From a bacterium (lineage in GTDB: Bacteria; Krumholzibacteriota; Krumholzibacteriia; LZORAL124-64-63): a stretch of DNA of 64,000 bases. A model generated the notes under the pieces. The model made no database searches. It was given only the letters and a program-made list of their open reading frames with translations, and had not been told where the DNA came from. Location of the stretch: the NCBI GenBank assembly GCA_031441465.1, contig JANOEP010000066.1, positions 94,132-158,131 on the forward strand, in the 5' to 3' direction. The position numbers were made by a program, and so were the translations under genes. Positions 8,955-61,935 of the stretch are shown here, in pieces; position 1 is the stretch's first letter, and every line of letters starts with the position of its first letter.

Positions 8955-9973
<1,019 letters not shown>

Positions 9974-12458: not shown

Positions 12459-13850
12459 CCACCCCGAACCCGGCGCGTCGCCCGTCGCTCGGCCCGCGGG
12501 GGCGCGGCGCCGGCTCGCGACGGGTGCCGCGATCTACCTGGCGGTGCTGGCGGCCGTCGGCCTCTCGCTGCTGCGGCTGCACGCCTCGGCGTCGGCGAGC
12601 CTCGAGCGGGCGCTGGGCGAGCGGCTGCTGGGCGTCGCGACGACAGCCGCCCACCTCGTCGACGGCGACTCCCTGCAGGTCTGGGCCCTCGACCCCCAGG
12701 AGACGCTCGAGTTCGTCTGGATGCGCACGCGCCTGCAGGAAGTCCGCCGCGAGAATCGCCTGAGCGAGCTGACGCTCTGCGACCGCGAGGGCTTCGTGCT
12801 GGTCTCGGCGGCCGACCGGGTCGCCCGCGGCGACGTCGACTATTACTGGGAACTCGACCCCGCCGCCGTGGCCTCCGCGCTCGGGGGCGCGCCCGAGCCG
12901 GGGTCGCTGGTGAAGGTCGGGGACGAGTATCAGAAGAGCGCCTTCGCGCCGGTGTGGACCGCCGACGGCCGGGTCGCCGGCGTGCTGTCGGTCGACGCGG
13001 AGGCCAAGTACTTCCGCGCCCTGGGCGACCTGCGGCGCGTGGCCTGGCTCACCGTGGTCGCCGTGCTCGCCTTCCTGACGGCGATGGCCCTGGTCGTGGC
13101 GAGGCTCGAGCGCTCCCTGGCCCGCGCCCGCGCCGCCGCCCAGCGCCAAGAGACCCTGGCGGCGATGGGGCGGATGACCGCGGGGATCGCGCACGAGATC
13201 CGCAACCCCCTGGGCATCATCCGCGGGGCCGGCGAGATCCAGGCGGCCAAGCTGCGCGAGCTGGGCGTCGAACTGCCGACGGCCGATTTCATCCCCGAGG
13301 AGGTCGACCGCCTGGACCGCATCCTGACCCGCTACCTGACCTTCGGTCGCGGCGGCGCGCCGCGGCCCGAGCCGCTGGACCTCGAAGCCCTGGTGCGGCG
13401 CGTGGCCCGGTTGGCGACGGGCGAACTGGAGCGCGCGGGCGTGCGCATCGACATCGAGAACCGCGGCGTCGGCGGTCCGGTGGCGGGAGACAGTCCCGGC
13501 CTGCAGCAGGTCCTGCTGAACCTGCTGCTGAACGCGCGCGACGCGATGCCCGGCGGCGGCGTCGTCACCGTCGTGCTCGAGCCCCGCAGCGACGGCGTCG
13601 TCCTGCGCGTGCGGGACGAGGGGAGCGGCCTGGGCGGCCGCAGCCAGGACGAGCTGTTCACGCCCTTCTTCACCACGAGGCAACAGGGGAGCGGCCTCGG
13701 CCTGGCGGTGGTGCGCCAGCTCGTCCAGGAGCACGGCGGCACGATCGCCCTGCGCGACCGCGACGACGGCCCCGGCGCCGAAGCGGTCATCGTGCTGCCG
13801 CGCGGCGACACCACGGCGGACGCCGGGGGAAGCGAGCAACCGGAGGAACC

Positions 13851-13866
<16 letters not shown>
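12448..13866 (+). CDS. sensor histidine kinase
   Basis: N-terminal TM region, H-box GIAHEIRNPLG, and an HATPase region (LLNLLLNARDA ... GSGLGLAVV). Confidence 0.8.
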
Positions 13867-15209
<1,343 letters not shown>

Positions 15210-23841: not shown

Positions 23842-23969
23842 GTCGCCATCTCTCGTGCACAAACCCGACGGAGGGTGAGCCTCATCATCTGGCTATCGAC
23901 CGGGGATCCTATCCCAAGTCAAATGTGATGTGCCGATGACCGTGACCCTTTGCACGAGGGGGCCGGACC

Positions 23970-26561
23970 ATGCCGAAGACTCGCCACCGTTCCGACTCGG
24001 AGCATGCCAGCCCGAGGACCTCCGCCACCAAAACACCGCTGCGGGAGACGACGCTGCGGCGACGCGCCGGGCTGGCCGCCGCGTCCCTCGCCTTGGCGTG
24101 CGTGTGCGCGTCCGGATCGGCGGCGACCGCCTGCACCGATTACCGGGACCACATCCGCGGCGTCAGCAGAGTCGACACGCCGGGACTGGCCTACGACGTG
24201 GCGGTCTCCGGCCTCTACGTCTACGTCGCGGACTGGTTGGCCGGCTTGCAGGTGATCGATGTCTCGTTCCCGTACTACGCCCAGATCGTGGGCGGCATCG
24301 ACACGCCGGGTCACGCCATGGACGTCGTCATCGTGGGGGATCTCGCCTACGTCGCGAATTACGAGCTCGGCCTGCAGGTGATCGACGTCTCGGATCCGCG
24401 ACACCCCTGGCTCAAGGGCAGCGTGGACACGCCGGGGCACGCCTGGCAGACGGCCGTGTCGGGCGACCGCGCCTATGTCGCGGACGATCTGTTCGGCCTC
24501 CACGTGATCGACATCACGGACCCGGCGCACCCGCAGCTCCTGGGCAGCGTGGACACGCCGGGGCACGCCTGGGGGGTGGCCGTCGCGGGGCCTTACGCCT
24601 ACGTCGCGGACGAGAATTTCGGTGTGCAGGTGGTCGACGTCACGGACCCCGCGAGTCCGCAGATCGTCGCCTGCCTGGACACGCCCGGCCAAGCCCGAGA
24701 AGTGGTCATCGCGGGCGCCAAGGCCTACGTCGCGGACGGCGACGCGGGCCTGCAGGTGTGCGACCTCTCGGACCCCGCCGACCCGCAGATCGTCAGCGGC
24801 GTCGACCGCTTCGGCTACTGCCACGGCGTCGTCTTGACGGGAACCACGGCTCACGTCGTGTTCGATTCCTACGTGTGCACGATCGACCTGTCCGACCCCC
24901 TGGCACCCGTCGTCGAGGACGGCCAGGGGATCGCCAGCGGCGCCACCAGCATCGCTGTTTCCTGGCCCTACGCCTTCGTGGCGAACGGCAGTTCCGGGGT
25001 GTTGGCGTTGGACGTTTCGGTCCCCGGGATCATCGGGAGCGTCGAGGCGCCGGGAGAGGCCGCAGCCGTCGCGGTATCGGGCGTCCACGCCTACGTGGCG
25101 GCCAGGGATGCCGGACTGCAGGTGTTCGATGTCGCGGATCCCTACCATCCCTTGGTCGTGACCGGTCTGGACACCCCGGGATACGCGGGCGACGTGGCGA
25201 TCTCGGGCACCTGCCTGCTCGTCGCGGACGGGGATGCGGGGCTGCAGGTGGTCGACATCGCGGATCCGGGTAACCCCGTGATCGTCGGCACGCTGGAGAC
25301 GCCCGGATTCGTCGGCGGCGTGGCGGTCGAGGGGACGATCGGCTACGTCGCGGCCGGGACGATCGGGTTGCTGGTGGTCGATCTCGCCGACCGCGAGCAC
25401 CCGGCGGTCCTGGGCAGCGTGAACACGCCCGGTTTCGCCCTGGACGTCTGCGTCGGGCGGGGCTGCGCCTACGTCGCGGACAGGAATACGGGCGTGCAGA
25501 TCGTCGATGTCGCGAACCCGTCGCAACCCGTCCTGCACGGCAACCTCGACACGCTCGGCGACGCCGAGGGCCTCGCGCTGGACGCGCGCTACTGGTACGG
25601 CCGCCTCTTCATCGCCGAAGGGGATTCCGGTCTCCAGGTCTACGACGTGTCGTCCCCGCTCTATCCCTGGCTCGTCGACAGCGGCACGACTCCCGGCCCC
25701 GCCCGCCGGATCGCGATCACGTACAACCACGCCTACGTCGCTCTCGAAGACCATGGTCTCTACGTCATGGAACGATCCTCGGGCGGCCCGTTCGCGGTCG
25801 AGCAGGTCAACGTGCCGGGACTGGTCCGCGGCGTCGCGGTCTCGGGATCCTTCGTCCTGATCGCTGCCGGGCCCGCCGGGTTGGCCGTGATGCCGGTCCA
25901 GTGCGACCTGAGCGTCCCTAACCTGCTCGCTTCGTTCAACGCGGCGGTGGCCGCGGCGTCGCCGCCATCGCCTGCGGCGCCCGGGCTGCCGGGCGCGCCG
26001 CTGCAGCGGCCGCGGGCCGTCGATCTGACCTGGTCGCTCACCGCCCCCCCGGCGCCCGGGTCCCTGCGCCTCGCCGCCGAATGCGCCGGCGCGGGTTGGG
26101 ACATCCCCTTCCTGCCGGACCCCCAGGGCGCCGCCGGGATGAGCTACGTGGCCCGCGATGACTCCCCCCTGCTCGCAGGCGTGCCGCGGGCACGCTACAC
26201 GCTGCTGCACGCCGTGACCCCCGGCGCCTGGACGGCGCTGGGCGACGTGACGGTCGTGTTCGGGACTTCCGAGACGCCCGGCGCGGCCGTGCCGCAACTC
26301 CACGTGTACCCGAATCCCTTCAACCCGAGCACGCAGGTGTCGTACGAGCTGACGCGGCCCGGCGTGGCGCGGGTGACGGTCCACGCGCTGACCGGCGCGT
26401 TGGTGCGGGTGCTGGCGGACGGGCCGCAGGCCGCGGGAGCGCACTTCGCGACGTGGGACGGCCGGGACGGGCGGGGGCGCGAGATGCCGGCCGGCGGGTA
26501 CGTGGTGCGGATCGCGACGGAGGCGGGGACGGGGGCGGTGAAGGCAGTGCTGGTGCGTTGA
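23970..26561 (+). CDS. LVIVD-repeat beta-propeller protein with C-terminal sorting domain (paralog 2)
   Basis: 863 aa with tandem repeats of the GLQVIDVSDP..P...G.VDTPG.A..V.V.G..AYVA type. The C-terminal 85 aa is identical or near-identical to paralogs 1 and 3. Confidence 0.8.
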   Translation: MPKTRHRSDSEHASPRTSATKTPLRETTLRRRAGLAAASLALACVCASGSAATACTDYRDHIRGVSRVDTPGLAYDVAVSGLYVYVADWLAGLQVIDVSFPYYAQIVGGIDTPGHAMDVVIVGDLAYVANYELGLQVIDVSDPRHPWLKGSVDTPGHAWQTAVSGDRAYVADDLFGLHVIDITDPAHPQLLGSVDTPGHAWGVAVAGPYAYVADENFGVQVVDVTDPASPQIVACLDTPGQAREVVIAGAKAYVADGDAGLQVCDLSDPADPQIVSGVDRFGYCHGVVLTGTTAHVVFDSYVCTIDLSDPLAPVVEDGQGIASGATSIAVSWPYAFVANGSSGVLALDVSVPGIIGSVEAPGEAAAVAVSGVHAYVAARDAGLQVFDVADPYHPLVVTGLDTPGYAGDVAISGTCLLVADGDAGLQVVDIADPGNPVIVGTLETPGFVGGVAVEGTIGYVAAGTIGLLVVDLADREHPAVLGSVNTPGFALDVCVGRGCAYVADRNTGVQIVDVANPSQPVLHGNLDTLGDAEGLALDARYWYGRLFIAEGDSGLQVYDVSSPLYPWLVDSGTTPGPARRIAITYNHAYVALEDHGLYVMERSSGGPFAVEQVNVPGLVRGVAVSGSFVLIAAGPAGLAVMPVQCDLSVPNLLASFNAAVAAASPPSPAAPGLPGAPLQRPRAVDLTWSLTAPPAPGSLRLAAECAGAGWDIPFLPDPQGAAGMSYVARDDSPLLAGVPRARYTLLHAVTPGAWTALGDVTVVFGTSETPGAAVPQLHVYPNPFNPSTQVSYELTRPGVARVTVHALTGALVRVLADGPQAAGAHFATWDGRDGRGREMPAGGYVVRIATEAGTGAVKAVLVR
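26022..26561 (+). repeat. conserved 3' cassette (copy 2; extended homology with copy 3)
   Basis: Shares RAVDL.WSL ... MSYVARDDSPLLAG ... PNPFNPSTQVSYE... with 28675-29224. Confidence 0.65.
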
Positions 26562-26629
26562 ACGACGTCGCATTGCAGGTATGACGACGCGTGGTGCAGA
26601 TCGTTGTCACGAATCGAGGAGGCCCGGCC

Positions 26630-29224
26630 ATGACAGGATGCCCGTCGAGTCCGTTTCATTGGCACGTCCTGGCGCGGGCCAGGCGCCCGATCGCGCCGCT
26701 GCGCGGGAGGCCGGTGTGTGGCCTCGGTCTGGTGGTCGTGATCCTCTCGCTGGCCTCCAGCCTGTACGGGGTCGATTGGTGGTACTGTTTCAACTACTAC
26801 GGTTACTTGAAATGGGTGGGTAGGCTCGACACGCCTGGCAACGCCAGCGACATCGAAATCGCCGGCGGTCACGCCTACGTCGCCGATTTGTTTTCGGGAC
26901 TGCAGATCGTCGATATCACCGGACCGGAGCCGCCCCAGATCGTCAGCAGCATTCCGATCACCAACGGCGCGATGGGCGTCGCCGTCGAGGGCGACCACGC
27001 CTTCGTCGTGGACGCCGCCGCACGTCTGCATGTCGTCGACGTTACGGACCCCGCGGAACCTGAGGTCGTCAGCAGCGTGGACGTGGAGGGATCTGCGTAC
27101 GGCGTGGTCATCGCCGGTCACTACGCCTACATGGCCGCCGGTTACGCCGGAGTCCAGATCATCGACATCACGGACGTGAGCGACCCGCGGCTGGTCGCGA
27201 CCGTCAACACCCCCGTCTCCGCGATGGGCGTGACCATCTCGGGATCGTACATCTACGTTGCTGACGGCACTTCCGGCCTGCAGGTGATCGACATCACGGA
27301 TCCGGCCACGGCGCAGATCGTGGGCGGGCTGAACACGCCGGGAGAAGCTCTCAACACGGAGATCGTCGGCGCTTATGCCTACATCGCGGATTCCGGTACC
27401 GGATTGGTGGTGGCGGACATCACGATCCCCCAATCGCCGGTGATCGTCGCTGTGGTGCCCATGCCGGGGAATGCCCGGGATATGGTGTTGTCGCCAGCAT
27501 TCCTCTACGTCGGGGACTCGACGGGCCTGCATCTGGTCGACGTCACGGCACCCGGGTCTCCCGAACTCGTCGACAGCTACGGGCTCACTGATGACGTCAC
27601 GAGCGTGGCCGTGGTGGGCGATCTCGTCTTCGCCGCCGTCGATGTGCGTGGGATCGAGATCATCGAGACGACGGATCCGGTCCCCTCGGCCAGCTTGGAC
27701 CTGCCGGGAACCGCCGCTGGCGTATCCGTCCAGGGCGATTACACATACCTCGCGTGCGGCGATGCCGGATTGTGCGTGGTCGATGTCTCGAACTATCTGG
27801 ATCCCCGGTTGGTAGGCACCGGGATCGTGCCGGGGAATGCCGTCGATGTGGCAGTCGTGGGGCCGTACGCCTACGTCGCCGCCAGCGAGTCCGGCCTCCA
27901 GGTGGTCGATGTCTCCGACCCCGCGAGTCCACAGCACGTCGGCGGTGTGGACACGCCGGGTTCGGCGTGTGCGGTCGCGATCGCCGGCACCATCGCCCAT
28001 GTCGCGGACGGCGTCGGCGGTCTGCTTCTGGTCGACGTTGCGGACCCTGTTCATCCCGCCATCGTCGGCGGCGTGGACACGCCGGGCAGCGCCCAAGGTG
28101 TATACGTGTTGAATTCCCGAAACAAGACTTACGTCGCCGATGGTGTGTCGGGCGTGCAGGTCGTCGATATCGTGGATCCCGGAAACCCCGTGATCGTGGA
28201 TGTCATCGAGACGCTGGACGACGCCGTCGGCATCACCTTCACGTCGACTCACGGCATCCTCGGCTATCTCTACGTGGCTGAAGGCGTCGGCGGCATCCAG
28301 GTATTCCGCGTCATGGCCGACGGCCAGGTGACACCTCAGGCCATCGGTGGACTGGCCTCGCCGGGCGGTGCCCGGAACCTGTGCATCTCCGGACCCTACG
28401 GCTACATCGCCGAGGGTCCGGCCGGGATCCAGGTGTGCCAGTATTACCAGCAAGGTCTGCAATCCGTTCGCCTCGTCGATGAAATCGCCGAAGCGCTGGA
28501 TGTGATCGCGAACAATAGGAACGTCTATGTCGCGTGCGGCACCGCCGGATTGACTGTTCTGCCGCAACAATGCTCTGGAGAGGGAGTGCCGGTCGTGCTG
28601 TCCACATTCACCGCCGCCGTGAGCGAACCCGATGCGGGGGACTCCGAGGTCCAGGGCGCACCGCCACGACGGCCCCGGGCCGTCGATCTGGCGTGGTCGC
28701 TAGCGGAGCCGATCGATGCGATATCCTTGCGGCTGAGCGCCGAGTCGGCCGGCGATAGCTGGGACGTCTCCTTCCTGCCGGGCCCCCTCGGCGCACCCGA
28801 CATGAGCTATGTCGCCCGTGACGATTCCCCCTTGCTGGCGGGGGCGCCTTCGGTCCGCTACACGCTGCTGCACGCCGCGTCTCCCGGCGCCTGGGCGGCG
28901 CTGGGCGACGTGACGGTCGTGTTCGGGTCCTCGTCGACGCCCGGCGCGCTCGTGCCGCAGCTCCACGTGTACCCGAACCCCTTCAACCCGAGCACGCAGG
29001 TGTCGTACGAGATGGCGCGGCCCGGGACGGCGCGGGTGACAGTCCACGCGCTGACCGGCGCGCTGGTGCGGGTGCTGGCGGACGGGCCGCAGGCCGCGGG
29101 GGTTCACTACGCGGTGTGGGATGGCCGGGACGAGCGCGGGCGCGAGATGTCGGCCGGCGGGTACGTGGTGCGGATCGCGACGGAGGCGGGGACGGGGGCG
29201 GTCAAGGTGGTGCTGGTGCGCTGA
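26630..29224 (+). CDS. LVIVD-repeat beta-propeller protein with C-terminal sorting domain (paralog 3)
   Basis: ATG at 26630 after gaggagg. Has the same repeat architecture. The last about 180 aa are highly similar to paralog 2. Confidence 0.8.
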   Translation: MTGCPSSPFHWHVLARARRPIAPLRGRPVCGLGLVVVILSLASSLYGVDWWYCFNYYGYLKWVGRLDTPGNASDIEIAGGHAYVADLFSGLQIVDITGPEPPQIVSSIPITNGAMGVAVEGDHAFVVDAAARLHVVDVTDPAEPEVVSSVDVEGSAYGVVIAGHYAYMAAGYAGVQIIDITDVSDPRLVATVNTPVSAMGVTISGSYIYVADGTSGLQVIDITDPATAQIVGGLNTPGEALNTEIVGAYAYIADSGTGLVVADITIPQSPVIVAVVPMPGNARDMVLSPAFLYVGDSTGLHLVDVTAPGSPELVDSYGLTDDVTSVAVVGDLVFAAVDVRGIEIIETTDPVPSASLDLPGTAAGVSVQGDYTYLACGDAGLCVVDVSNYLDPRLVGTGIVPGNAVDVAVVGPYAYVAASESGLQVVDVSDPASPQHVGGVDTPGSACAVAIAGTIAHVADGVGGLLLVDVADPVHPAIVGGVDTPGSAQGVYVLNSRNKTYVADGVSGVQVVDIVDPGNPVIVDVIETLDDAVGITFTSTHGILGYLYVAEGVGGIQVFRVMADGQVTPQAIGGLASPGGARNLCISGPYGYIAEGPAGIQVCQYYQQGLQSVRLVDEIAEALDVIANNRNVYVACGTAGLTVLPQQCSGEGVPVVLSTFTAAVSEPDAGDSEVQGAPPRRPRAVDLAWSLAEPIDAISLRLSAESAGDSWDVSFLPGPLGAPDMSYVARDDSPLLAGAPSVRYTLLHAASPGAWAALGDVTVVFGSSSTPGALVPQLHVYPNPFNPSTQVSYEMARPGTARVTVHALTGALVRVLADGPQAAGVHYAVWDGRDERGREMSAGGYVVRIATEAGTGAVKVVLVR
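28675..29224 (+). repeat. conserved 3' cassette (copy 3)
   Basis: Same as the entry above. Confidence 0.65.
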
Positions 29225-29458
29225 AGCGGTCCGGTCCTGTTCCCAGCTCGTCTGGCTCGCCAGGCCTCCGATTCCGGGCGAAGTCTTTCGCCGGTGGTGA
29301 CGTTTCCGTATCATTTCTATGATTATGACAGTCGAGTATCGATCCGATATGCAGTTCCAGGGTATCGCCCGCCAGGGTGCGGCATCACGAAGGGAGCGTC
29401 GACGTCCTGACGGATCCGCTCCGGCAGTTCGTCGGCGACACGGACACATCCACCTTCA

Positions 29459-31825
29459 ATGCCAAGGATGATCACGATGAAGACCCGATCGGCACCAGGG
29501 AAAGTTCCGGAGATCCGGCTGCTGCTCGTGCTCGCGACTGCGCTGGTCGCCGCGCTCGCCGGCTTCACGACCAGCGCCGGAGCCACCGGCGAGATCCTCA
29601 GTTGGGGCGGGACGGTCGTCGTCGCCCAGGATGCCTTGACTAACCTGTCGGCGGTGTCGGCGGGCGAGGGGCATAGCCTGGGTCTGAAGACCGACGGGTC
29701 GATCGTCGCCTGGGGACGCAACAACTTCGGCCAATGCACCGTGCCGGCGCCCAACGCGGGGTTCGCGGCGGTGGCGGCCGGCGGCGAGTACAGCCTGGGC
29801 CTGAAAGCCGACGGCTCCGTCGTGGTGTGGGGATCCAGCCAGGACGGTCTTCATGACGTGCCCGCGCCGAACCTGGGATTCACGGCCGTGTCGGCCGGGA
29901 TCTACCATGCGCTGGGCCTGAAGGCCGATCAGACCGTCGTGGCGTGGGGCTACAACCTTGCGCCGGGCGGCGATCCCGGCGGCCAGTGCGACGTGCCGTC
30001 TCCGAATCAGGATTTCACGGCGGTCGCCGCCGGCGGATTCCACAGCGTGGGCCTGAAGTCCGACGGGTCCGTCGTCTGTTGGGGTAACAACCGGAGCGGC
30101 CAGTGCGACGTGCCTGCGCCGAACACGGGCTTCACGGCGATCGCGGCGGGCATGGACCACAGCATGGGTCTGAAGGCCAACGGTTCCATCGTCGTGTGGG
30201 GCGACAACAGTATGGGCCAGTGGAACGTGCCGGCGCCGAACTCCGGGTTCATGGCCCTGGCGGCGAGCAGGTACGGCAGCACGGGTCTGCGGCCCAACGG
30301 CACGATCGTCGCCTGGGGCGACGACTGGGGGATGGGCCCCGCCGTGCCGTACCCGAATGCGGACTTCACGATGATCGCGACGGGATCCATGCACAAGCTG
30401 GCCCTGAAGTCCGACGGGACCGCCGTCGCCTGGGGCTCGAACGTGTTCGCCCAGTGCAACCTGCGCCCGGCGAGCCTCGGCTGCACGGAACTGGCTGCGG
30501 GGACGATGCACTGGCTGGGCCTCAAATCGAACGGATCCATCGTCGGCTGGGGTGCGAATTCCAGCGGCCAGGCCACGGCGCCCACGGTGAACACGGGTTT
30601 CACGGCGCTAGGGGCGGGACGATACCACAGCCTGGCTCTGAAGACCGATGGTTCGATCGTCGCCTGGGGTGGCAACTTCAACGACGATCTCGAATACACC
30701 GGCCAGTGCAACGTGCCGGCGCCGAACGCGGGGTTCGTGGCGATCGCCGGGGGCGGCTATTTCAGTTTGGGCGTGAAGGACGACGGCTCCGTCGTCGCAT
30801 GGGGTGACAACCGGCTCGGCCAGTGCGACGTGCCGGCGCCGAACGCCGGGTTCGCGGCGGTCGCGGCGAGCGACCGTCACAGCCTAGGCCTGATGCTCGA
30901 CGGCTCCGTCGTCGCCTGGGGGGACAACCTGCACGAACAGTGCAACGTCCCCGGATCGAACTCGGGCTTCACGGCGATCGCGGCGGGCGGCGACCACAGC
31001 CTGGGGTTGAAGGTCGACGGCTCCATCGTCGCTTGGGGAGACAACCAGTTCGGCCAGTGCGAGGTCCCCGCGCCGAACGCGGACTTCATCGCGGTGGCGG
31101 CGGGCGACATCCACAGCCTGGGCCTGAAATCCGACGGGTCGATCTTCGCGTGGGGGAGCCACGGATCCGGTCGGTGCGACGTGCCCGCGCCTAACGCGGG
31201 TTTCACGGCGATCGCGGCGCGTGGCGACGTCAGCCTGGGGATCCGCAGCCTCGTGCCGCAATCCGTCCAGCTGACCCGGTTTGACGTCGAGCGCCGCGGC
31301 GGCCGGGCGACGGTCCGCTGGGCGATGTCCCGGCCGCTCGACCACGCCGGCTTCCATCTCTGGCGGCAGGAGCCCGGCAGCGACCGTGTTCGTCTGAGCC
31401 AGATGCTGTTGATCGGTGAGAACACCTACGACTTCATCGACCGGTCACCGCCGAGGGGAAAGGCGGAATATTGGCTGCAGGAAGTGACGACCGACGGTTC
31501 GGAGAACTGGTACGGCCCCGCGCTCCTGGAGGCAGCCCCGATTCCGACTTCCTTGCATTTGGCCCAGAATCGTCCCAACCCTTTCAATCCAAGCACATCG
31601 TTCAACTTCGAGCTCCCAAAACCTGGCCGCGCCGTACTGGTGATCTACGACGTGCGGGGCGCACGTGTCGCAACATTGGTCGATGCCGGCGTGTCCGCCG
31701 GTGAGCAAAGCATGGAATGGGGCGGCCTCGATGACGGCGGTGTCCCGATGCCTTCGGGGATCTACTTCGCGCGGCTGGAGGCGGAGGATGGTATTCGGAC
31801 GATCAAGGTGACTCTGGCGCGATAA
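29459..31825 (+). CDS. RCC1-repeat (alpha-tubulin-suppressor-like) beta-propeller protein with C-terminal FlgD-Ig / Por-tail-like domain
   Basis: 788 aa with about 13 tandem repeats of HSLGLK.DGS.V.WG.N..GQC.VP.PN. The C-terminus is RPNPFNPSTSFNFELPKPGRAVLVIYDVRGARVATL...GIYFARLEAEDGIRTIKVTLAR. Confidence 0.8.
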   Translation: MPRMITMKTRSAPGKVPEIRLLLVLATALVAALAGFTTSAGATGEILSWGGTVVVAQDALTNLSAVSAGEGHSLGLKTDGSIVAWGRNNFGQCTVPAPNAGFAAVAAGGEYSLGLKADGSVVVWGSSQDGLHDVPAPNLGFTAVSAGIYHALGLKADQTVVAWGYNLAPGGDPGGQCDVPSPNQDFTAVAAGGFHSVGLKSDGSVVCWGNNRSGQCDVPAPNTGFTAIAAGMDHSMGLKANGSIVVWGDNSMGQWNVPAPNSGFMALAASRYGSTGLRPNGTIVAWGDDWGMGPAVPYPNADFTMIATGSMHKLALKSDGTAVAWGSNVFAQCNLRPASLGCTELAAGTMHWLGLKSNGSIVGWGANSSGQATAPTVNTGFTALGAGRYHSLALKTDGSIVAWGGNFNDDLEYTGQCNVPAPNAGFVAIAGGGYFSLGVKDDGSVVAWGDNRLGQCDVPAPNAGFAAVAASDRHSLGLMLDGSVVAWGDNLHEQCNVPGSNSGFTAIAAGGDHSLGLKVDGSIVAWGDNQFGQCEVPAPNADFIAVAAGDIHSLGLKSDGSIFAWGSHGSGRCDVPAPNAGFTAIAARGDVSLGIRSLVPQSVQLTRFDVERRGGRATVRWAMSRPLDHAGFHLWRQEPGSDRVRLSQMLLIGENTYDFIDRSPPRGKAEYWLQEVTTDGSENWYGPALLEAAPIPTSLHLAQNRPNPFNPSTSFNFELPKPGRAVLVIYDVRGARVATLVDAGVSAGEQSMEWGGLDDGGVPMPSGIYFARLEAEDGIRTIKVTLAR

Positions 31826-35880: not shown

Positions 35881-36651
35881 CTACTTCAAGAGGGTGAGCC
35901 GCGCCGTCAAGGCGTCGCGACGGTCGGCGCCGCGCACGTCCAGGCGCGCGAAGTACGTCCCGCTCGGGGCGGAGCGGCCGTCGGATCCGCGCCCGTCCCA
36001 GGCCGCGGCGTGGCGGCCGGCCGGCCAGTCGCCCTGGGCGAGGGTGGCCATCACGCGCCCGCGCACGTCGAAGACCGTCAGTTCGATCACGGCCGCGGCG
36101 CGCAGGTTGAAGGCCACGGTGGTCCCGGGGTTGAAGGGGTTGGGATGCACCGGGCCGAGGCGGTCGACCGTCACGGTCGGCGGCGTGCCGGTGCCGCTGC
36201 CCTCGATCGCGAACTCCCCGCCCTGGTCGGCGCCGATCCCGCCGAAGCGGTCGACGGCCCCCACCGCCAGCACGGCCGCGGCCGTCGCGTGGTCGGGGAC
36301 GGTCCAGACCCAGGTGTACTGGCCGTCGGGATCGGGCGGTACGAGGGCCTGCGCGAGCACTTCGGCGCCGTCGAACACCGTCACGGTGATCGCCGCCGGT
36401 GCGGCGCCCCAGCTCGATTCGTCGACGCTCCAGCGCAGCGTCTCCTGGGCGGCGGCCTGCAGCGACTCGCCGCCGGCCGGGTACAACACCGACACGAGCG
36501 GCGGGCGGCTGTCCAGGGTGTCGGGCGCGGAGACGGCGCTGCCCGTCGCGGCGGCGGCGGGGCCGGCGGCGACGAGGCTGATGGCGACCAGGACGGCGGC
36601 GGACAAGACGCCGTGCGGCGGCGAAACGCCACGGATCGTTGCGGTACGCAT
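35881..36651 (-). CDS. secreted protein with C-terminal FlgD-Ig / Por-tail-like domain
   Basis: Signal MRTATIRGVSPPHGVLSAAVLVAISLVAAGPAAA. The C-terminus is HPNPFNPGTTVAFNL...VFDVRGRVMATL...WDGRGSDGRSAPSGTYFARL. Confidence 0.6.
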   Translation of the reverse strand: MRTATIRGVSPPHGVLSAAVLVAISLVAAGPAAAATGSAVSAPDTLDSRPPLVSVLYPAGGESLQAAAQETLRWSVDESSWGAAPAAITVTVFDGAEVLAQALVPPDPDGQYTWVWTVPDHATAAAVLAVGAVDRFGGIGADQGGEFAIEGSGTGTPPTVTVDRLGPVHPNPFNPGTTVAFNLRAAAVIELTVFDVRGRVMATLAQGDWPAGRHAAAWDGRGSDGRSAPSGTYFARLDVRGADRRDALTARLTLLK

Positions 36652-36797
36652 GGCTTGCACCTCGGGTTCGGGGGCTCCGGACGGACGCAGCAAGCGCCGC
36701 GCCGGGGCGGCATGGTCAAGATACGGATGTTCTCAGTAGTGGAAAGGAAGGGCCGCCCGCGTGGGCGGCCCGGCAGGGGGCGGCGTCGTCGGCTGGA

Positions 36798-42997: not shown

Positions 42998-43197
42998 GGT
43001 GGTCTCCCGGGACGGGGTCGGCGGTCGTGCCGATTCCCAGGATAAGCCAGGGATGCGGTTACGGCCCCATTCGCCGTCCGGTTGCGGGGCAGCTGCCCGG
43101 GCCGGGGTCGGCCGAACTTGTTCCCCGATGGCAGTTGTGATATCTTGGTTTCAATATCCCCTGATGCTATCACCACCCCTGGAAAGGACCGACAATC

Positions 43198-43902
43198 ATG
43201 GGCCTGACCAGAAACCTGATCGTGATCGCGACCCTGGCGCTGATCGGCGCCTGCAACGACGCCACCCCTCCCGCGGAAACCAACAGCGACCTGCGCGGGC
43301 AGGTCGTCGACGCCCTCGGCCAGCCGGTGGCCGGCGCGGCCGTGATCCTGCAGTACGACACGACGCCACCCATGTCCGGGAAGCAGGACAAGCCCCAGAT
43401 GCAGATCGAATTCGGGCTGCTGGATCCGGGTCACGTCACGGCCTGGATCGCGGACTACTGCGACGGCGACATCCTGCGTCTGCTCGCCGACGGGGATTTC
43501 CCCAGAGGAAACCACTCGATCCTGTGGGACGGACTGGACGACGACAACCGGGTCCTGCCGGACGGCGTCTACCGGTTCCACTTGGTGACGGATGCCGGGG
43601 AAGACATCCAGTCCCTGGCGATCCTGCGCATGGGGTACGGCGACTTCGCGGCGGACACCGCGCTGGCACCGCTGGCGATCGCCGACGCGCAGGGCCGGTT
43701 CACACTGCCACAGGCGTGCCTGCCCTTCGGATTCGAGTACGAGGTGGTCGATGGTCTCGGCAATCCCGTGGTGGTGTTCACCATCAACCGCAGCGTCCGT
43801 GTCTGGGCGTTCAGCGCTTCTGCCGGCGCCAGCGGGTCGAGTCCCGTGGTGACCGTCGATCCCGACACCGGCGCCGACGTCACGGTGACGCTGGATCCGT
43901 AA
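43198..43902 (+). CDS. hypothetical lipoprotein with internal FlgD-Ig-like motif
   Basis: Signal LIVIATLALIGACND. Contains GQVVDALGQPVAGAAVILQY ... HSILWDGLDDDNRVLPDGVYRFHLV. Confidence 0.45.
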   Translation: MGLTRNLIVIATLALIGACNDATPPAETNSDLRGQVVDALGQPVAGAAVILQYDTTPPMSGKQDKPQMQIEFGLLDPGHVTAWIADYCDGDILRLLADGDFPRGNHSILWDGLDDDNRVLPDGVYRFHLVTDAGEDIQSLAILRMGYGDFAADTALAPLAIADAQGRFTLPQACLPFGFEYEVVDGLGNPVVVFTINRSVRVWAFSASAGASGSSPVVTVDPDTGADVTVTLDP

Positions 43903-43978
43903 CCGACTATGCAAGGGATCGGCAAGAGGAAGCGGGCGGGGATGGGCCCCCGCCCGCTTCCTCTTGCCGATCCCGTGC

Positions 43979-44947
43979 CTAGAGGTTGGCGAAGATCCGG
44001 TCGAACGCCTCCCGCATCCCCGCCTGCAGCTTCGCCACGTTCTCCGCCGACCACGACTCCTGCGGGTCGCGGATGAAGGTCGTGCGGTCGACGCGGTTGT
44101 CGAAGCGGCCCAGGGGCAGGTGGTAGGTGCGGCCGTGCGCCCGCACCGTCACGGTGTCGGATTTCTCGGTGTGGTCCAGCAGCCACGCCATGTCGTCGCA
44201 TCCGTAATCGCCGAGCATGACCTCGATGGGCACGCCGTGGTGCAGGATCGAGCCGGGGTCGTTGGGGTCGGTGCGGGCGTCGTTCTTGCGGCGGGACTCC
44301 TCGGGCGTGACCCAGATGTAGAGGATGCTGGCGCGCTCGAGCATCGCCGGCGAGAGCATGCGCAGCGAGTACTGGTAGCCCCAGGGATCCTGCAGGGGCA
44401 GGGCCGAGCCTTGCCCGCCGCCGCGGGCGAACTCCACCACGACGGTCTTGTCGTCCAGCGTGTCGGGCACCTCGCGCACCTTGTCGTCGAGCAGCTTCTT
44501 CGCCTCGGGCTGCAGGGCGGCGACCAGCTGCGCGCGTTCCGCCGCGGGCAGGTCCTTCCAGATGGTCGCGGCGCCGACCTTGGCGCGGCAGGTGTCGAAG
44601 CGCTCCAGGAGCCAGGTCGTCGGGCAGGCGGGGGCGGGCCGGCGGTGCGCGACCAGGTCGGCGTAGTCCTCGTTGAGCAGTTCGATGAGCGTGCCCCAGT
44701 CCAGGGGGTTCTTCATGGGCAGGTTGTCGGCGTCGAAGAACGCCGGGTCGCAGCCCAGGGCGCGCAGTTCCTGGCTGACGCGGCGCATCATGTGGACGTA
44801 GGGGTAGTCGTCGAGCTGGACGGTCTGGCCGAGGCCGAACTGCCGCTCGCACTCGGCGGCGTTCAGGCTGGCCAGGTAGCGCCGCGCCTCGGACTTGCCG
44901 GAGGCGGGCAGGGCGCAGAGCAGCAGGACGTCGATGTGCTTGGCCAT
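43979..44947 (-). CDS. hypothetical protein with degenerate P-loop (kinase-like)
   Basis: N-terminus is VLLLCALPASGKSE, a Walker-A-like motif with Gly replaced by Ala. The rest is unrecognised. Confidence 0.35.
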   Translation of the reverse strand: MAKHIDVLLLCALPASGKSEARRYLASLNAAECERQFGLGQTVQLDDYPYVHMMRRVSQELRALGCDPAFFDADNLPMKNPLDWGTLIELLNEDYADLVAHRRPAPACPTTWLLERFDTCRAKVGAATIWKDLPAAERAQLVAALQPEAKKLLDDKVREVPDTLDDKTVVVEFARGGGQGSALPLQDPWGYQYSLRMLSPAMLERASILYIWVTPEESRRKNDARTDPNDPGSILHHGVPIEVMLGDYGCDDMAWLLDHTEKSDTVTVRAHGRTYHLPLGRFDNRVDRTTFIRDPQESWSAENVAKLQAGMREAFDRIFANL

Positions 44948-45017
44948 GGTCGTGCTCCTGTCGGGCGGTCCGGTGAAGGTGTGCCGACCGGGAACATGGC
45001 GAGGGCCGCGGGCGCGG

Positions 45018-48000
45018 TCAAGCCCCGGATCCGGACTCCGGCGCCGGAGACGGGGCGCAAGGCGCGCGCCGCAGCAGGCGTTCGCGCAGCGCGGACAGCC
45101 GCCAGCCGCAGCGGCACAGCACCCAGTAGAGCGGGGGCATCACCGCGACGATCAGCACCGTGCTGGAGGCCAGGCCGCCGATGCTCGACAGCGCCAGGTT
45201 CTCCCAGATGTCCTTGCCCTGGGTGTCGTCCATCCGGACCAGCAGCGGCAGCAGGCCGGCGATCGTCGAGCCGGTGGTCAGCAGGATCGAGCGCAGCTGG
45301 ATGCCGGTGCCCGCGACGATCGCCCCGCGCAGCAGCTCCAGGCGCGCCCCCGCCGGCAGCCGCCACAGGTCGCCGCCGCCCAGCCGCGGCACGTCGGGCA
45401 CCAGGCCGGACCAGGGGTGGCCGCGATCGAGGCGATCGGCGGCGAGGCGCTCGCGCAGCTGCAGCCGGAAGCGGTTGATCAGCAGGATGGCGTTGTTGAC
45501 CACGATGCCGAACAGCAGCACCAGGCCGATGCGGGCCGAGGAGTCGAACTGCGAGTCGGTGAGCCAGAAGACGGCCATCACGCCGCACAGCGCCATCGGC
45601 AGCGACAGCATGATCAGCAGGGGCAGCGCGATGCTCTCGAACAGCGCGGCCATGGTGATGAAGACGAACGCCGCCGTCAGCCACAGCATCGTGTTCATCT
45701 CCTGTTCCTCTTCCTCGGTGAGCTGTTCGCCCGAGACGTCCTCGGCGGTGTAGCCGTAGGGGAGGTCGACGCCGGCGATGATCTCCTGCAGGTAGTGCTG
45801 GCGCATCCGGTCGGTGCCCACGTACTCCCAGTTGATCTGGACGGCGTACTGCTGATCCTGGCGGTTGATGGCGGTCACCACCGGCCGCTGCTGCAGGGCC
45901 ACGAGTTCGTCGAGGCGCACCCGCTGGCCGGTGAGCGTGGTCATGGTGTGGCCGACGATCTGGTCGTACTGGAGGTCCTCGGCGTCGGCGAAGGCCAGCT
46001 GCAGGCGCTGGTCGCGGCCCTCGAGGATCATGTGCCAGGGGAACTCGATGCCCAACAACCGGCGCAGGTAGCCCACGACCTCCTGCACGGTGAGGTGGTG
46101 TTCGGCGAGGGCGGCGCGATCGATGACGATCAGCGTCTCGTCGGTGTCGGCGCGGTCGAAGCGGTCGCCGCCGGTCAGCCGCACGTTGCGCACGCGGCGG
46201 CTGCGTTCCAGGCGCGCCATGACCCCGGCCGACAGGCCCTCGAGTTCGCGGCTGTTGTAACCGGTGAGCCGCAGCAGCGAGTTGCTCATGCCGCCCCCGC
46301 CGCCGCCCTTCAGGTAGGGGTCGCCGAACCCGTTGATCCAGATGAACATGCCGCCGAGTTCCTCGGCGAGCAGGATCAGGCGGTTGCGGTACAGCTCCGG
46401 GTACTCCGTGCGCAGCATCGATTCCTCGAACTCGACGCGCATGTAGGCGCGGTTGTCCCAGGAGGTCGTCTTGACGGTCACGCCGGCGGGCACCGGGTCC
46501 AGTTCGATCTCGAACTGCTTCATCGTCTCGCTGGCGAGGATGACGTCGGTGCCGACGGGGCGCTCGAGGTAGAGCACCAGGGTCTCCGCGTCCTGCTGCT
46601 GCCAGAAGCCGCCGTGGGCGACCTCGTGGCGGTAAAGGTGGATGCCGCCGTAGACGGCGCCCGCCAGCAGCAGCAGGGGGATCCACCACCGTCGCAGGTG
46701 GAAGGCCGTGATCCGCTGCACGTAGGCGGCGAAGGCGCCCACCAACGACATCAGGCCCAGGGCGCCGCCGAACCAGGGCAGCATCCGCACGACGGCCGCG
46801 CGGTCGCGGACGACGGCGAAGGCGACCAGCGCGACCAGGGAGAGCCCGGCCGCGGTCAGCGTCCAGCGCCACAGCAGCGCCCAGCCCTCGCGCTCGGGCG
46901 CGGGCGCGCGCGACTGCAGCATTTCGCGCTCGACCAGCGGGCGCAGGGCGACGGGGATCCAGGCGAAGGCCACGAAGATCGAGGCCGTCATCGCGATGCC
47001 CACGCTCACCGCCAGGGGCTTGTAATAGACGGCCAGCCGGTCGGAGAGGTACATGAAGGACAGGAAAGCGACGACCGTGGTCAGGGTCGTCGCCATGATC
47101 GGGAAGGCCACCTCGCGGGTGCCGTCGACCAGGACCCCGCGGACGTCGCCGCGCCGCCCGAGCGCGTGGCTCCCGAGAATGCGGCGATGGATGGCGTCGA
47201 GCACCAGGATGCTGTTGTCCATCAGCATGCCGAAGCAGACGGTCAGACCGCTGATGGTGATGAAGTTCACCGAGATCCCGAAGAAGTAGAACAGCGACAG
47301 GCAGATCACGATCGCCATCAGGATCGAACCGGTGACGACGGCCGTGAAGCGCACGCGGCGCAGGGCGGCCGCCAGCAGCAGGAACAGCAGCGCCAGGATG
47401 GCCAGCGAGCGGTTGACCAGCTCCTGCACCTTGCCGCGCAGTTCCTCGCCGTTGTCGGTGTCGATCTCGAAGTCGACCGGGAAGGGCATGTCGGCGCGGA
47501 TGCGTGGCAGGGCCGCGCGCACGTCGCGGCTGACGGCGATGGCGTTGGTGCCGCTGCGCTTGGCGACCGAGGCCTGGATCACGTTGCGCCCGTTGATGCG
47601 CACGAAGTGGGTGGGGTCGTCGAACGACGGCGCCAGCTCGGCGAGCCGCCACAAGGCGATCGGCTGCCCGCCGCGGGTGGCCACCACGGTGTCCAGGATC
47701 ATGCGCGCGGTCACCGAGTCCTGCACGCTGACGGCGATCTCGCGGCCGCGGCGCCGCACGCCGCCCGCGGGCAGGATGTCGTCCAGCACGTCGATCGCGG
47801 CGTACACCTCGTCGGCGTGGACGGCGTAGCGTTCCATGAGGTCGAAGTCCAGCAGCACCTTGACCAGCGGCAGCGCCCCGCCCTGCAGTTCGACGTCGGC
47901 GACGCCCGGCACCGCCAGCAGTCGGGGCAGCAGCCAGGTCTCGGCCTTGTCGCGCAGTTCGTTCGCGCTCAGGCTCGAGATCAGGCTGACGGTCATGAAG

Positions 48001-60268: not shown

Positions 60269-61336
60269 ATGCGCGCCACACGGTTCACCTACCTGCTGCT
60301 GGCGGCCGCCCTGGCCCTGTTGCCGGCCGGTTGCGGCGACGACGAGCCGACCGGCCCGCAGGCGGCCGCGCTGGCGGTCCGGATCGAGCCGGCGCACCTC
60401 GGCGCCACTTGGCAGCTGAGCGGTCCCGGCGGGTACAGCCTGTCGGCCGACGGGGACACGACGCTCACGGACCTGCCTGCCGGGTCGTACACCCTCGCCT
60501 GGCTGGACGTCGCCGGCTGGGAGACCCCGACCCCGGCCGCCGCGGTCCGGCAGCTGGAGGCGAGCGGCACGACGACCTTCCTCGGCCTCTATCAGGCGGA
60601 GGTTGGCCCCGCCCTGGCCGTGGTCCCGGCGGGGGACTTCATGATGGGCAGCGAACGCGACGAACCGGGGCGCAACGACGACGAGTCCATGGTGCAGTAC
60701 TTCTTCAACACGGGCTTCCGGGTCTCGCGGTTCGAAGTGACCGAAGCGCTCTGGGACCGGGTGATGGGCGGGTCCTCGGTCTCGCGCCTGCCGAAAGTCG
60801 ACGTGAACTGGTACGAGGCCCTCCTCTTCTGCAACGCCCTCTCGGTCCAGGAGGGACTGACGCCCGCCTACGAGGGCTCCGGCACGAACTGGACCTGGAA
60901 TCCGCTGAACGACGGCTACCGCCTGCCTCTGGAAGTGGAGTGGGAATACGCCTGCCGCGCCGGCAGCACCACCGAACTGGCCAACGGCAGCCTGCGCTAC
61001 ACCGATTGCCAGCCCATCGACCCGACGCTCGACGCGATCGGCTGGTCCTGTCAGAATTCCGGCTTCCCCGTCTACCGCGCCCACGAAGTGGGCCAGAAAA
61101 TGCCGAACGCCTGGGGCCTCCACGACATGCACGGCAACGTGTGGGAGTGGTGCTGGGACAGCTACTACGAGACCGACGCCGACGGCTACCCGACGGGCGA
61201 ATCGCTCGGGCAGGTGAACCGCGGCGGGGCCTTCGACAACTTCGCGCAGTTCTGCCGGGCGGCCAACCGGCACTACACTGACCCGCGGCGGGGGGATGCC
61301 CACCGCGGCTTCCGCATTGTCCGCTCCGGTGAATAG
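60269..61336 (+). CDS. formylglycine-generating-enzyme (SUMF1/FGE) family lipoprotein
   Basis: Lipobox LLPAGCGDD. Contains HGNVWEWCWD and GFRIVRS, conserved FGE-sulfatase-domain motifs. Confidence 0.75.
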   Translation: MRATRFTYLLLAAALALLPAGCGDDEPTGPQAAALAVRIEPAHLGATWQLSGPGGYSLSADGDTTLTDLPAGSYTLAWLDVAGWETPTPAAAVRQLEASGTTTFLGLYQAEVGPALAVVPAGDFMMGSERDEPGRNDDESMVQYFFNTGFRVSRFEVTEALWDRVMGGSSVSRLPKVDVNWYEALLFCNALSVQEGLTPAYEGSGTNWTWNPLNDGYRLPLEVEWEYACRAGSTTELANGSLRYTDCQPIDPTLDAIGWSCQNSGFPVYRAHEVGQKMPNAWGLHDMHGNVWEWCWDSYYETDADGYPTGESLGQVNRGGAFDNFAQFCRAANRHYTDPRRGDAHRGFRIVRSGE

Positions 61337-61466
61337 CTGAAGATCCTCCCGCGACGGGGGACGCGCTCCGTTCACATCCTGTGAACGGAGCGCTCGGCTT
61401 TCGGCCCCCAGTGCCCTCCTGGCACTGGGGGCCGAAAGACGCCCCCGTCGCGGGAGGATCTTCAGC
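61337..61466 (+). ncRNA. nested inverted-repeat element: a 25-bp outer stem enclosing two hairpins (loops AUCCU and CUCCU)
   Basis: Outer stem gctgaagatcctcccgcgacggggg pairs with cccccgtcgcgggaggatcttcagc. Inner hairpin 1 is gcgctccgttcac-atcct-gtgaacggagcgc. Inner hairpin 2 is ctttcggcccccagtgcc-ctcct-ggcactgggggccgaaag. There is no U-tract. Confidence 0.4.
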
Positions 61467-61500
61467 GATGCAGCACAATCGGATCTTGTTTGGAGTCATG

Positions 61501-61509
61501 TGGTATAAT
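61501..61509 (+). promoter_or_regulatory. extended -10 promoter TGgTATAAT
   Basis: catgtggtataatcatcc is a perfect TATAAT with an upstream TG. It lies 43 nt upstream of the 61552 ATG. Confidence 0.45.
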
Positions 61510-61551
61510 CATCCATCATCGGGAGTGGAGACTGGACGGTCGGGGGGGAAG

Positions 61552-61935
61552 ATGAATCGGCGCTTCTTGATCACGATCTTATTGTATTGCATGGCGTTGT
61601 TGGCTGCGGGCGTCGTCGGGGCCGCGGAGGGACCGCCGGGGGCGCCGGGGCGACCGGGGCGGGTCAGGCTGGAGCAGCCGTTCCCGCGGACGGCCGATCC
61701 GGCGGCGTTCGTGCCGTTCGAGGTGGATGGGCGGACCCACGTGACGCTCGACGTGCTGGATGCGGCCGGGAATCCGGTCGTGCGGCTGGCCGAGGGGGTC
61801 TACGCCGGGGGGCGGCATGCGGTGCGTTGGCGGGGGTGCGACGGGGACGGGCGGCGGGTCGCGCCGGGCGTTTATACGGTGCGGATGAATGCGGGGGGGC
61901 GGATCCGCACCCGGGTCTTACCGGTGATCGGCTGA
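61552..61935 (+). CDS. small secreted protein consisting essentially of a FlgD-Ig / Por-tail-like domain
   Basis: ATG at 61552 after ggggggg-aag. Has a signal (LITILLYCMALLAAGVVGAA) followed by VPFEVDGRTHVTLDVLDAAGNPVVRL...WRGCDGDGRRVAPGVYTVRM. Confidence 0.6.
   Translation: MNRRFLITILLYCMALLAAGVVGAAEGPPGAPGRPGRVRLEQPFPRTADPAAFVPFEVDGRTHVTLDVLDAAGNPVVRLAEGVYAGGRHAVRWRGCDGDGRRVAPGVYTVRMNAGGRIRTRVLPVIG

Follow-up and report, generated by a model that had tools for sequence, protein, structure and literature searches.

Among the palindromic repeats that lie between bacterial genes, the Correia/NEMIS elements of Neisseria and the ERIC and YPAL elements of enterobacteria are 100–170 nt long and form long hairpins in mRNA, often at gene ends; the RNA hairpins of Correia elements are substrates of RNase III. 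The repetitive extragenic palindromic (REP) sequences, including those tagged with CGTC (PMC3733652), the bacterial interspersed mosaic elements (BIME), and the REPINs (PMC3116915) have palindromic units of 20–40 nt with 4–5-nt loops, are intergenic and mostly downstream of genes, and are found in either orientation, also as inverted pairs able to form larger folds; roles in mRNA stabilisation, termination, and supercoiling have been proposed for them. An element which shares these features of placement and form lies in the 64-kb stretch of bacterial DNA analysed here (contig JANOEP010000066.1, assembly GCA_031441465.1; this whole stretch is called the window below), between a gene for an FGE-sulfatase-domain lipoprotein (FGE) and a gene for a small secreted protein with a FlgD Ig-like domain (FlgD_ig). 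We found that this element, copy A, belongs to a family of at least three related nested palindromes of ~130–150 bases at gene boundaries. The coordinates of its parts are collected in Table 1.

Sequence reading and a repeat finder placed copy A at window positions 61336–61466 and resolved it into a 25-bp outer stem around two hairpins. In the outer stem G61336 and positions 61337–61360 pair with 61442–61465 and C61466, all 25 bp being perfect, and the arms lengthen to 31 nt (61330–61360 / 61442–61472) if two mismatches are allowed. Hairpin 1 (61363–61376 / 61380–61393) can be drawn with 14 bp and a 3-nt UCC loop or, equivalently, with 13 bp and an AUCCU loop, which is how an earlier note made from the sequence alone had drawn it; hairpin 2 (61398–61415 / 61421–61438) has 18 bp and the loop CUCCU, just as that note had it. 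Below hairpin 2, beyond a 1×1 internal loop, there is an extra C-G/G-C pairing (61395–96 / 61440–41), in which linker bases C61395 and G61396 pair with C61440 and G61441. The earlier note had let the element run from 61337 to 61466, starting right after the FGE stop codon; the stop, TAG, occupies 61334–61336, and its last G is paired in the outer stem, so that the start moves by one base to 61336 and the rest of the placement stands. Folding of the RNA, a check the note had proposed, gave a minimum free energy (MFE) of −129 kcal/mol, whereas 200 dinucleotide-shuffled sequences gave −60.6 ± 4.2 kcal/mol and none of them was as stable (z = −16.2); with the repeat finder this upheld the outer repeat enclosing two hairpins. 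The minus strand was nearly as stable (−126.6 kcal/mol, z = −13.7). Just three perfect hairpins with stems of at least 10 bp occur across the window, and two of them are the inner hairpins of the element; the GC content of the genome is 70.7%. The bases after the element (CGATGCAGCACAATCGG) contain no T-run and a simple terminator scan found no terminator there, in agreement with the note's remark that a U-tract is missing.

Through homologues of the two proteins encoded on either side of the element, FGE and FlgD_ig, syntenic loci were reached in L120 (GCA_016702345.1), L124 (GCA_016278185.1), L126 (Logan), L127 (GCA_016706845.1), and L119 (JGI), and on the short contigs L121 and L122. The gene order at these loci is ackA-pta-Rrf2-nadE, then FGE - FlgD_ig - EF-hand - adenosine deaminase - PFK. 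Together with the window they represent four lineages with ~86% nucleotide identity in the flanking genes, namely the window itself, L124/L121/L126, L119/L127/L122, and L120. For the window's Pta protein the closest named relatives come from Candidatus Krumholzibacteria (66–71% identity) and, judged from sequence, the clade carrying the family, including its phylum, is probably one of uncultured, Krumholzibacteria-like wastewater bacteria. In L120, L124, L126, and L127 the three-way architecture is identical in layout and position to that of the window; L122 and L121 hold the beginning of the element, at which point the contig ends. Between the window and L120 11 of 24 outer-arm positions differ (ungapped), and each arm is perfectly paired with its own partner. 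In the four orthologues 97.3% of the cells were paired, and 20 of the 66 pairs had changed on both sides (12 such pairs lie in the outer stem), only one having changed to G·U; none of 500 column shuffles reached these statistics, and shifted partner columns gave ~40% pairing. In L120, L124, and L126 the outer stem runs on for 35–38 bp into the last FGE codons (GGTGAATAG / CTATTCACC); the extension of the window's 3' arm to 61472 is a decayed form of the same reverse-complement copy of those codons, which is intact in these three.

A covariance model built from four orthologues (R1) detected further full-length matches in the intergenic region after PFK, ~4 kb downstream of copy A. Copy B, on the plus strand, begins at the PFK stop codon as copy A does at that of FGE, and copy C, on the minus strand and therefore antisense to the flanking genes, lies 65–75 nt beyond copy B; both were found after PFK in L119, L120, and L127 by R1 and by a second model built from eight copies (R2). 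Copy B is also present in the window's own genome, on Logan contig L128 (SRR20217196), which matches the window identically across 2877 nt, element included; there it occupies L128:4216–4363, equivalent to ~65339–65486 and past the window end, and the contig ends inside copy C. All three copies lie within 4.5 kb, and none lies in the other 61 kb of the window, where R2 with filters off found copy A alone plus a weak match to a simple hairpin at 43910–43983. The element is thus neither unique nor without conserved structure; the earlier note had named as fatal to its view an element both unique and untranscribed, and a covariance search showing no conserved structure. The covariance models recovered copies B and C and a conserved architecture with the two-sided changes given above.

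What the copies share is a strand-specific core of ~85 nt. Its hairpin 1 stands on a GCGC...GCGC base, a TCGRC linker leads to hairpin 2, whose top reads GCC-NTCCT-GGC, both loops are NTCCT, and the tail is GACG; the outer stems, of 25–60 bp, are locus-specific and unrelated in sequence between copies, and they abut or overlap the neighbouring gene terminus. Among 128 loci, the core pattern TCCTG-N10-GCTCGRC-N14-GCCNTCCTGGC (then GACG) recovered family copies and nothing else, missing just L126 copy A, in which the hairpin-2 loop is flipped, and L119 copy C. In 12 distinct copies 94.7% of the cells were paired, and two-sided changes affected 46 of 63 pairs; of the 24 loops, 23 had the sequence NTCCT, always on the strand that carries linker and tail. 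The arms of copy C lengthen imperfectly to 56–62 nt (85–86% complementary) and span the ribosome-binding site, start codon, and first codons of the next gene.

The two arms of the stems changed in mirror fashion. Among 748 paired cells 700 were Watson-Crick, 8 were G·U, and 40 were mismatched; G·U thus made up 17% of the non-Watson-Crick cells, about the share estimated for chance (2 of 12 non-Watson-Crick combinations); selection for RNA pairing alone would have been expected to raise it above that. The elements of L124 and L126, whose genes are 93–96% identical, differ by two mirrored double substitutions and by an exact inversion of the hairpin-2 loop, from CTCCT to AGGAG in L126, which also has a synonymous GGT to GGC change in the last FGE codons that is mirrored in the distal 3' arm. 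L122 and L127, with FGE 97% identical, differ at three mirrored positions in hairpin 1. The outer arms include reverse-complement copies of coding termini. In L119 the 5' arm and both inner hairpins are gone and the 3' arm has been kept; since this arm is the exact reverse complement of the L122 5' arm, L119 carries a deletion allele and not an empty insertion site, and its junction (CTGA/CGCCCCC) is consistent with deletion at GA microhomology. In L127 copy A (9665–9817) and copy B (Table 1) are both imperfect, copy B having a 5' arm identical to that of L120 and a 3' arm like that of L119, hence its mismatches. Across lineages, each of the four possible combinations of hairpin-1 and outer-stem variants of copy A was seen, and this, like the arms of L127 copy B, suggests that homologous recombination has taken place between lineages within the elements. 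Template switching makes and maintains perfect hairpins, yields multi-base compensatory changes, and inverts spacers, and its documented marks at inverted repeats also include deletion and the growth of arms into adjoining sequence (PMC8794818, PMC8604942). The mirrored changes in the arms point to copying between arms at the level of DNA, for which template switching would be a fitting mechanism.

We favour, with a probability of about one half, the reading that these are REP/BIME-like palindromes at transcript boundaries, kept paired mainly by a DNA-level process. It is from their position that a boundary role, and transcription of the element itself, would follow: copies A and B look like they stand at the ends of two apparent transcription units, one of FGE and one running from FlgD_ig through PFK. 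If co-transcribed with FGE, the element would form a very stable three-way junction exactly at the FGE 3' end, where it could hold up 3'-5' exonucleases, be processed by RNase III at the 25–38-bp perfect duplex of the outer stem, or block or pause read-through. Each of these roles would keep the FGE transcript apart from the FlgD_ig...PFK unit, whose own end would be at copies B and C. During replication, we propose, template switching or gene conversion between the arms would copy a change in one arm onto the other; the same process could also turn loops around, lengthen arms into the coding sequence next to them, and now and then remove an arm.

Several points weigh against this reading. Mycobacterial RNA polymerase does not terminate at hairpins lacking a U-tract (PMC3993855), and the absence of one here makes simple intrinsic termination doubtful. 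Copy C, antisense to its neighbours and with its arms over the ribosome-binding site and start of the next gene, is unlike a plain 3'-end element. The conserved strand-specific loops, linker, and tail suggest a sequence-specific partner, which would be superfluous in a boundary model. The L119 lineage has lost the structure (six contigs) and copies A and B of L127 are imperfect, so any function must be dispensable. Finally, copy number and placement rest on ~77 kb per genome.

A rival reading is that the element is a non-autonomous mobile element or relic of the REP/REPIN or IS200/IS605-PATE kind, in which the two same-strand hairpins with their conserved loops and the invariant GACG/CGTC tag would be the signals by which an HUH/Y1 single-strand transposase recognises and cleaves it; the core would have been inserted into or beside pre-existing hairpins by a transposase encoded elsewhere, and no host function would be needed. 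We regard this as unlikely, even though much of the layout agrees with it. There are multiple copies in both orientations, copies B and C forming an inverted pair that resembles REP dimers; the inner hairpins are of REP size (29–41 nt) with 5-nt loops and a conserved flanking tetranucleotide; the core is shared while the outer stems are locus-specific; and REPs tagged with CGTC are known, mostly as head-to-head dimers and with no known transposase (PMC3733652). However, the stems of the element have 12–18 bp compared with 8–9 bp in CGTC REPs and the tag is mostly 5–6 nt off the stem. The presence/absence polymorphism seen in L119 would fit mobility, but this "absent" allele keeps one arm and is a deletion. 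All copies are orthologous and syntenic in the four lineages, with no lineage-specific insertion seen; the window contains a single copy even with filters off; a Pfam scan of the 26 larger open reading frames (ORFs) of the window showed no transposase domain; and target-site duplication was not found.

Searches were also made for dispersed copies. With up to 3 mismatches allowed, the three parts of the element matched nothing else in the window, and the core pattern, when given 3 mismatches, yielded matches at chance level. In a genome collection, from which the source genome and its relatives are evidently missing, an exact 22-mer of the outer arm and the hairpin-1 pattern each had 0 matches; in a metagenome collection a 19-mer of the outer arm had 10 matches, all of a single arm, 19–22 nt long, with no partner arm, which we took as chance; and in viral contigs the outer arm and the core pattern had 0 matches each, hairpin fragments giving only single-strand chance matches. 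The earlier note had offered a REP- or MITE-like repeat as an alternative, and the half of that proposal which concerns a repeat holds, there being a multi-copy family with a conserved core in both orientations. Miniature inverted-repeat transposable elements (MITEs) in the strict sense occur as many dispersed copies that have their terminal inverted repeats in common and are flanked by target-site duplications; here, in contrast, copies A, B, and C have wholly different outer arms, the copy A arm has no real match elsewhere in the window or in the genome and metagenome sets, the flanks are inverted copies of each other and not direct repeats, there is no duplication of a target site, and nothing indicates recent mobility, so that the MITE half had to be given up.

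The palindrome might instead be a neutral by-product, perhaps a former terminator, that has been perpetuated, perfected, and enlarged purely by template switching during replication and has no present function. The stems evolve at or above the rate of neighbouring genes yet stay paired (L122 and L127 differ at ~11% of element positions and 2.8% of FGE positions), G·U pairs are not enriched, a loop has flipped in L126, arms have grown into coding sequence, and the L127 and L119 lineages show decay or deletion of the structure, all of which speaks for this reading. Template switching alone is insufficient, however, to explain why NTCCT loops, TCGRC linker, GACG tail, and loop orientation are conserved in three old paralogues and four lineages; the reading of the loops on one strand across these paralogues indicates that the core is also under strand-specific constraint and weighs against a purely neutral view. 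Moreover, three of these palindromes have persisted at gene boundaries, although long perfect palindromes are as a rule unstable and become lost. We therefore hold a wholly neutral origin to be improbable.

The same constraint raises the idea that the core is the recognition module of an undescribed system, either a new class of structured RNA with a dedicated protein or ribosome partner, or a DNA hairpin substrate of an HUH/Y1-type enzyme. This is speculative and we give it a low chance; if the second form were true, the activity would build T-shaped nested palindromes, like the inverted terminal repeats of adeno-associated virus (AAV), that grow by copying adjacent gene termini. The covariation may stem from template switching at the DNA level or from selection for RNA pairing, and alone is no proof of a functional RNA. 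An Rfam search, which the earlier note had recommended, named no family: with Rfam 15 no match reached gathering thresholds in the window, only generic hairpins appeared at E ≤ 10, and the three copies of L120 gave none at E ≤ 1. The core is thus a candidate structured motif absent from Rfam, in a phylum without cultured members or transcript-boundary data, and whichever process maintains it the family offers an unusually clean natural bacterial palindrome with concerted arm evolution, in which mirrored changes, a flipped loop, captured coding termini, and a one-arm deletion can all be seen.

The sole strongly conserved block between copy A and the FlgD_ig start reads TCATGTGGTAT(A/T/G)AT...CCATCAT and is followed by the G-rich ribosome-binding site; it includes an extended −10-like sequence (TCATGTGGTATAAT, window 61496–61509, with the extended −10 TGgTATAAT at 61501–61509) that is strongly conserved between element and ribosome-binding site in all six lineages. 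A consensus promoter scan left this extended −10 out, there being no −35. We take positions 61496–61521 as a putative promoter and, as the conserved extended −10 lies past the element, the FlgD_ig mRNA probably starts downstream of it. In some lineages the block holds a short inverted repeat, GGATCAT...ATGATCC, a possible operator that would overlap the promoter. A 184-aa ORF (61381–61935) and a 155-aa gene call from 61468 (P0121) were set aside as spurious N-terminal extensions; the orthologues start at the equivalent of ATG 61552, where the L124 orthologue was called.

According to the earlier note the UCCU loops, as anti-Shine-Dalgarno mimics, might sequester the G-rich site of the downstream gene, or the element might bind a CsrA/RsmA-like protein. 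In its wider form, in which the loops act on other mRNAs as well or the AGGAG/AGGAA of the opposite strand forms a CsrA-type sponge, such a regulatory RNA would be in line with the NTCCT loops (23 of 24 in the 12 copies, strand constant relative to linker and tail) and with the G-rich ribosome-binding sites downstream. Nevertheless, the promoter-like block separates element from ribosome-binding site, hairpin 2 of L126 carries AGGAG, L119 has both the promoter-like block and an unaltered ribosome-binding site although its element is deleted, copy C runs antisense to the genes beside it, and no Rfam family matches, the best being Scr3202 at 31.9 bits against a gathering score of 52. Sequestration was not borne out by these comparisons; CsrA/RsmA binding fared no better, the sense loops reading NUCCU and GGA loops, apart from that of the flipped hairpin 2 of L126, being confined to the opposite strand. 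We consider a regulatory RNA of this kind very unlikely.

An assembly or sequencing artefact such as a chimeric fold-back, which might be feared as palindromes do disturb assembly (the short-read contigs L121, L122, and L128 end inside element copies), is refuted by the orthologues, the element being identical in the window and the Logan contig and present as diverged, structurally equivalent copies in five other NCBI, ENA, and Logan assemblies. The contig ends (L121:1620–1637, L122:1463–1538, L128:4420–4471) mark the palindromes as assembly breakpoints, and the element explains the short-read contig breaks at its sites in these organisms.

Table 1. Features of the copy A locus in window coordinates, and positions of copies B and C on their contigs
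Feature	Position	Strand	Basis or remark
Upstream gene, FGE-sulfatase-domain lipoprotein, 355 aa	60269..61336	+	ORF list; Pfam PF03781, E = 1.9e-36
Outer stem, 5' arm (G + CTGAAGATCCTCCCGCGACGGGGG)	61336..61360	+	Last G of FGE stop paired; repeat finder and fold
Hairpin 1 of core: GCGCTCCGTTCACA / UCC / TGTGAACGGAGCGC	61363..61393	+	GCGC...GCGC base and NTCCT loop common to copies A, B, C
Linker TCGGC (family consensus TCGRC) between inner hairpins	61394..61398	+	Invariant columns in 8-copy alignment; core pattern search
Hairpin 2 of core: 18-bp stem, loop CTCCT at 61416–61420	61398..61438	+	Stem top GCC-NTCCT-GGC invariant in family
GACG tail (CGTC on other strand)	61438..61441	+	Invariant in all aligned copies (alignment G109 A110 C111 G112)
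Outer stem, 3' arm (CCCCCGTCGCGGGAGGATCTTCAG + C)	61442..61466	+	Weak extension to 61472
Promoter-like block TCATGTGGTATAATCATCCATCAT	61496..61521	+	Between element and FlgD_ig gene; six-lineage alignment
G-rich ribosome-binding site (GGGGGGGAAG) and FlgD_ig gene	61543..61935	+	ATG 61552; 127-aa secreted protein, FlgD Ig-like domain
Copies B and C, inverted pair	L120:11038–11193 + 11259–11418; L119:12333–12491 + 12555–12712; L127:13616–13762 + 13838–13987	B plus, C minus	

The surroundings of the copies showed some further features. The beginning of the gene after copy C is overlapped by the 3' outer arm of that copy (L120:11381–11442, L127:13956–14011, L119:12690–12770; N-terminus of the gene product ...RSRAWGLVAAFAVLTAGAVLLWGYQTDDTW); gene callers chose three different starts for this gene in three genomes, and in any read-through transcript its start would lie buried in a long helix. 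An extra FlgD_ig protein of 497–498 aa follows the small FlgD_ig gene in L124 (3471–4967) and L126 (899–2392), and a GT87 glycosyltransferase gene is inserted ahead of the adenosine deaminase gene at L119:8680–10008. Many secreted proteins of the window end in a FlgD Ig-like domain (23946–31825, 35881–36732, 61552–61935), among them two LVIVD beta-propeller proteins, one RCC1-repeat protein, one 283-aa protein, and the 127-aa protein downstream of the element, which comprises little beyond its signal peptide and the domain itself; in this lineage the domain may act as a tag for sorting or anchoring. The simple hairpin mentioned above (window 43907–43982; 27 perfect bp, 35-nt arms at 94%, loop ATGGGC, no U-tract) almost exactly fills the gap between the stops of convergent ORFs 43165–43902 (+) and 43979–45139 (−), neither with a Pfam match, and weakly matches the outer-stem part of the models (36–40 bits). 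It could be a bidirectional boundary hairpin or the same kind of element minus the core.

A number of described structures were compared with the element and rejected. As in an intrinsic terminator, a GC-rich hairpin lies directly downstream of a gene; however, the U-tract of 7–9 nt is not present after 61466 (GATGCAGCACAATCGG), and the same is true of copies B and C. Integron attC sites were rejected as the ends read CTGAAG...CTTCAG and not R''/R' (RYYYAAC ... GTTRRRY), the stems are perfect, the structure is branched, and there is no integrase among the scanned ORFs. Retrons were rejected on their defining features. The CUGAAGA that might recall a hammerhead ribozyme lies inside the paired outer stem and is not conserved in copies B and C, and Rfam gave no such match. 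A target site of a diversity-generating retroelement, where a hairpin follows an FGE/C-type-lectin variable region, was considered and dropped without a dedicated test, there being no reverse transcriptase in the ORFs scanned and a C-terminus unlike the Asn-rich variable region.

Other classes share part of the design. Hairpin terminators without a U-tract have been predicted in high-GC bacteria as "I-shaped" and tandem-hairpin "V-shaped" classes; like them, the element is a GC-rich hairpin right after a stop codon with a promoter-like block downstream, but unlike them it has a nested two-hairpin core with conserved loops and linker, occurs in several copies, and has one copy antisense. The terminal hairpin of AAV, T-shaped (A-B-B'-C-C'-A') and ~125–145 nt long, places an outer palindrome around two small ones and exists in "flip" and "flop" forms; it serves as a replication origin, stands at the end of a linear genome of single-stranded DNA, and carries Rep binding and nicking sites. 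With this hairpin the element has an architectural analogy only, in its nested layout and in flip/flop as compared with the L126 loop and the orientation of the copy C core, for it is internal to a bacterial chromosome, with no Rep-like gene nearby and no sequence similarity. Hairpins attributed to template switching (PMC8794818, PMC8604942) resemble the element in their perfect stems, simultaneous multi-base compensatory changes, inverted loop, and arm expansion; the subject of those studies is a mutational mechanism, described for rRNA, yeast, and ape genomes, and not a bacterial element family, and we suggest that template switching would account for the maintenance of the element and not for its function.

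The 25–38-bp perfect outer helix can be likened to the RNase III substrates of Correia elements. In the size of its hairpins and in the invariant GACG (CGTC on the other strand) adjoining hairpin 2 the element resembles REP sequences in part, the stems being longer and the tag in most copies offset as noted above. It differs from REP sequences in having two different hairpins in direct orientation inside a long, locus-specific outer stem, which makes a three-way junction, and in its three syntenic copies so far, seen in the ~77 kb available per genome with no sign of mobility and no RAYT gene known here. From these sequence comparisons the REP/BIME/REPIN class, with its CGTC-tagged REPs, appears to be the nearest known kind, and the element a probable variant of it.

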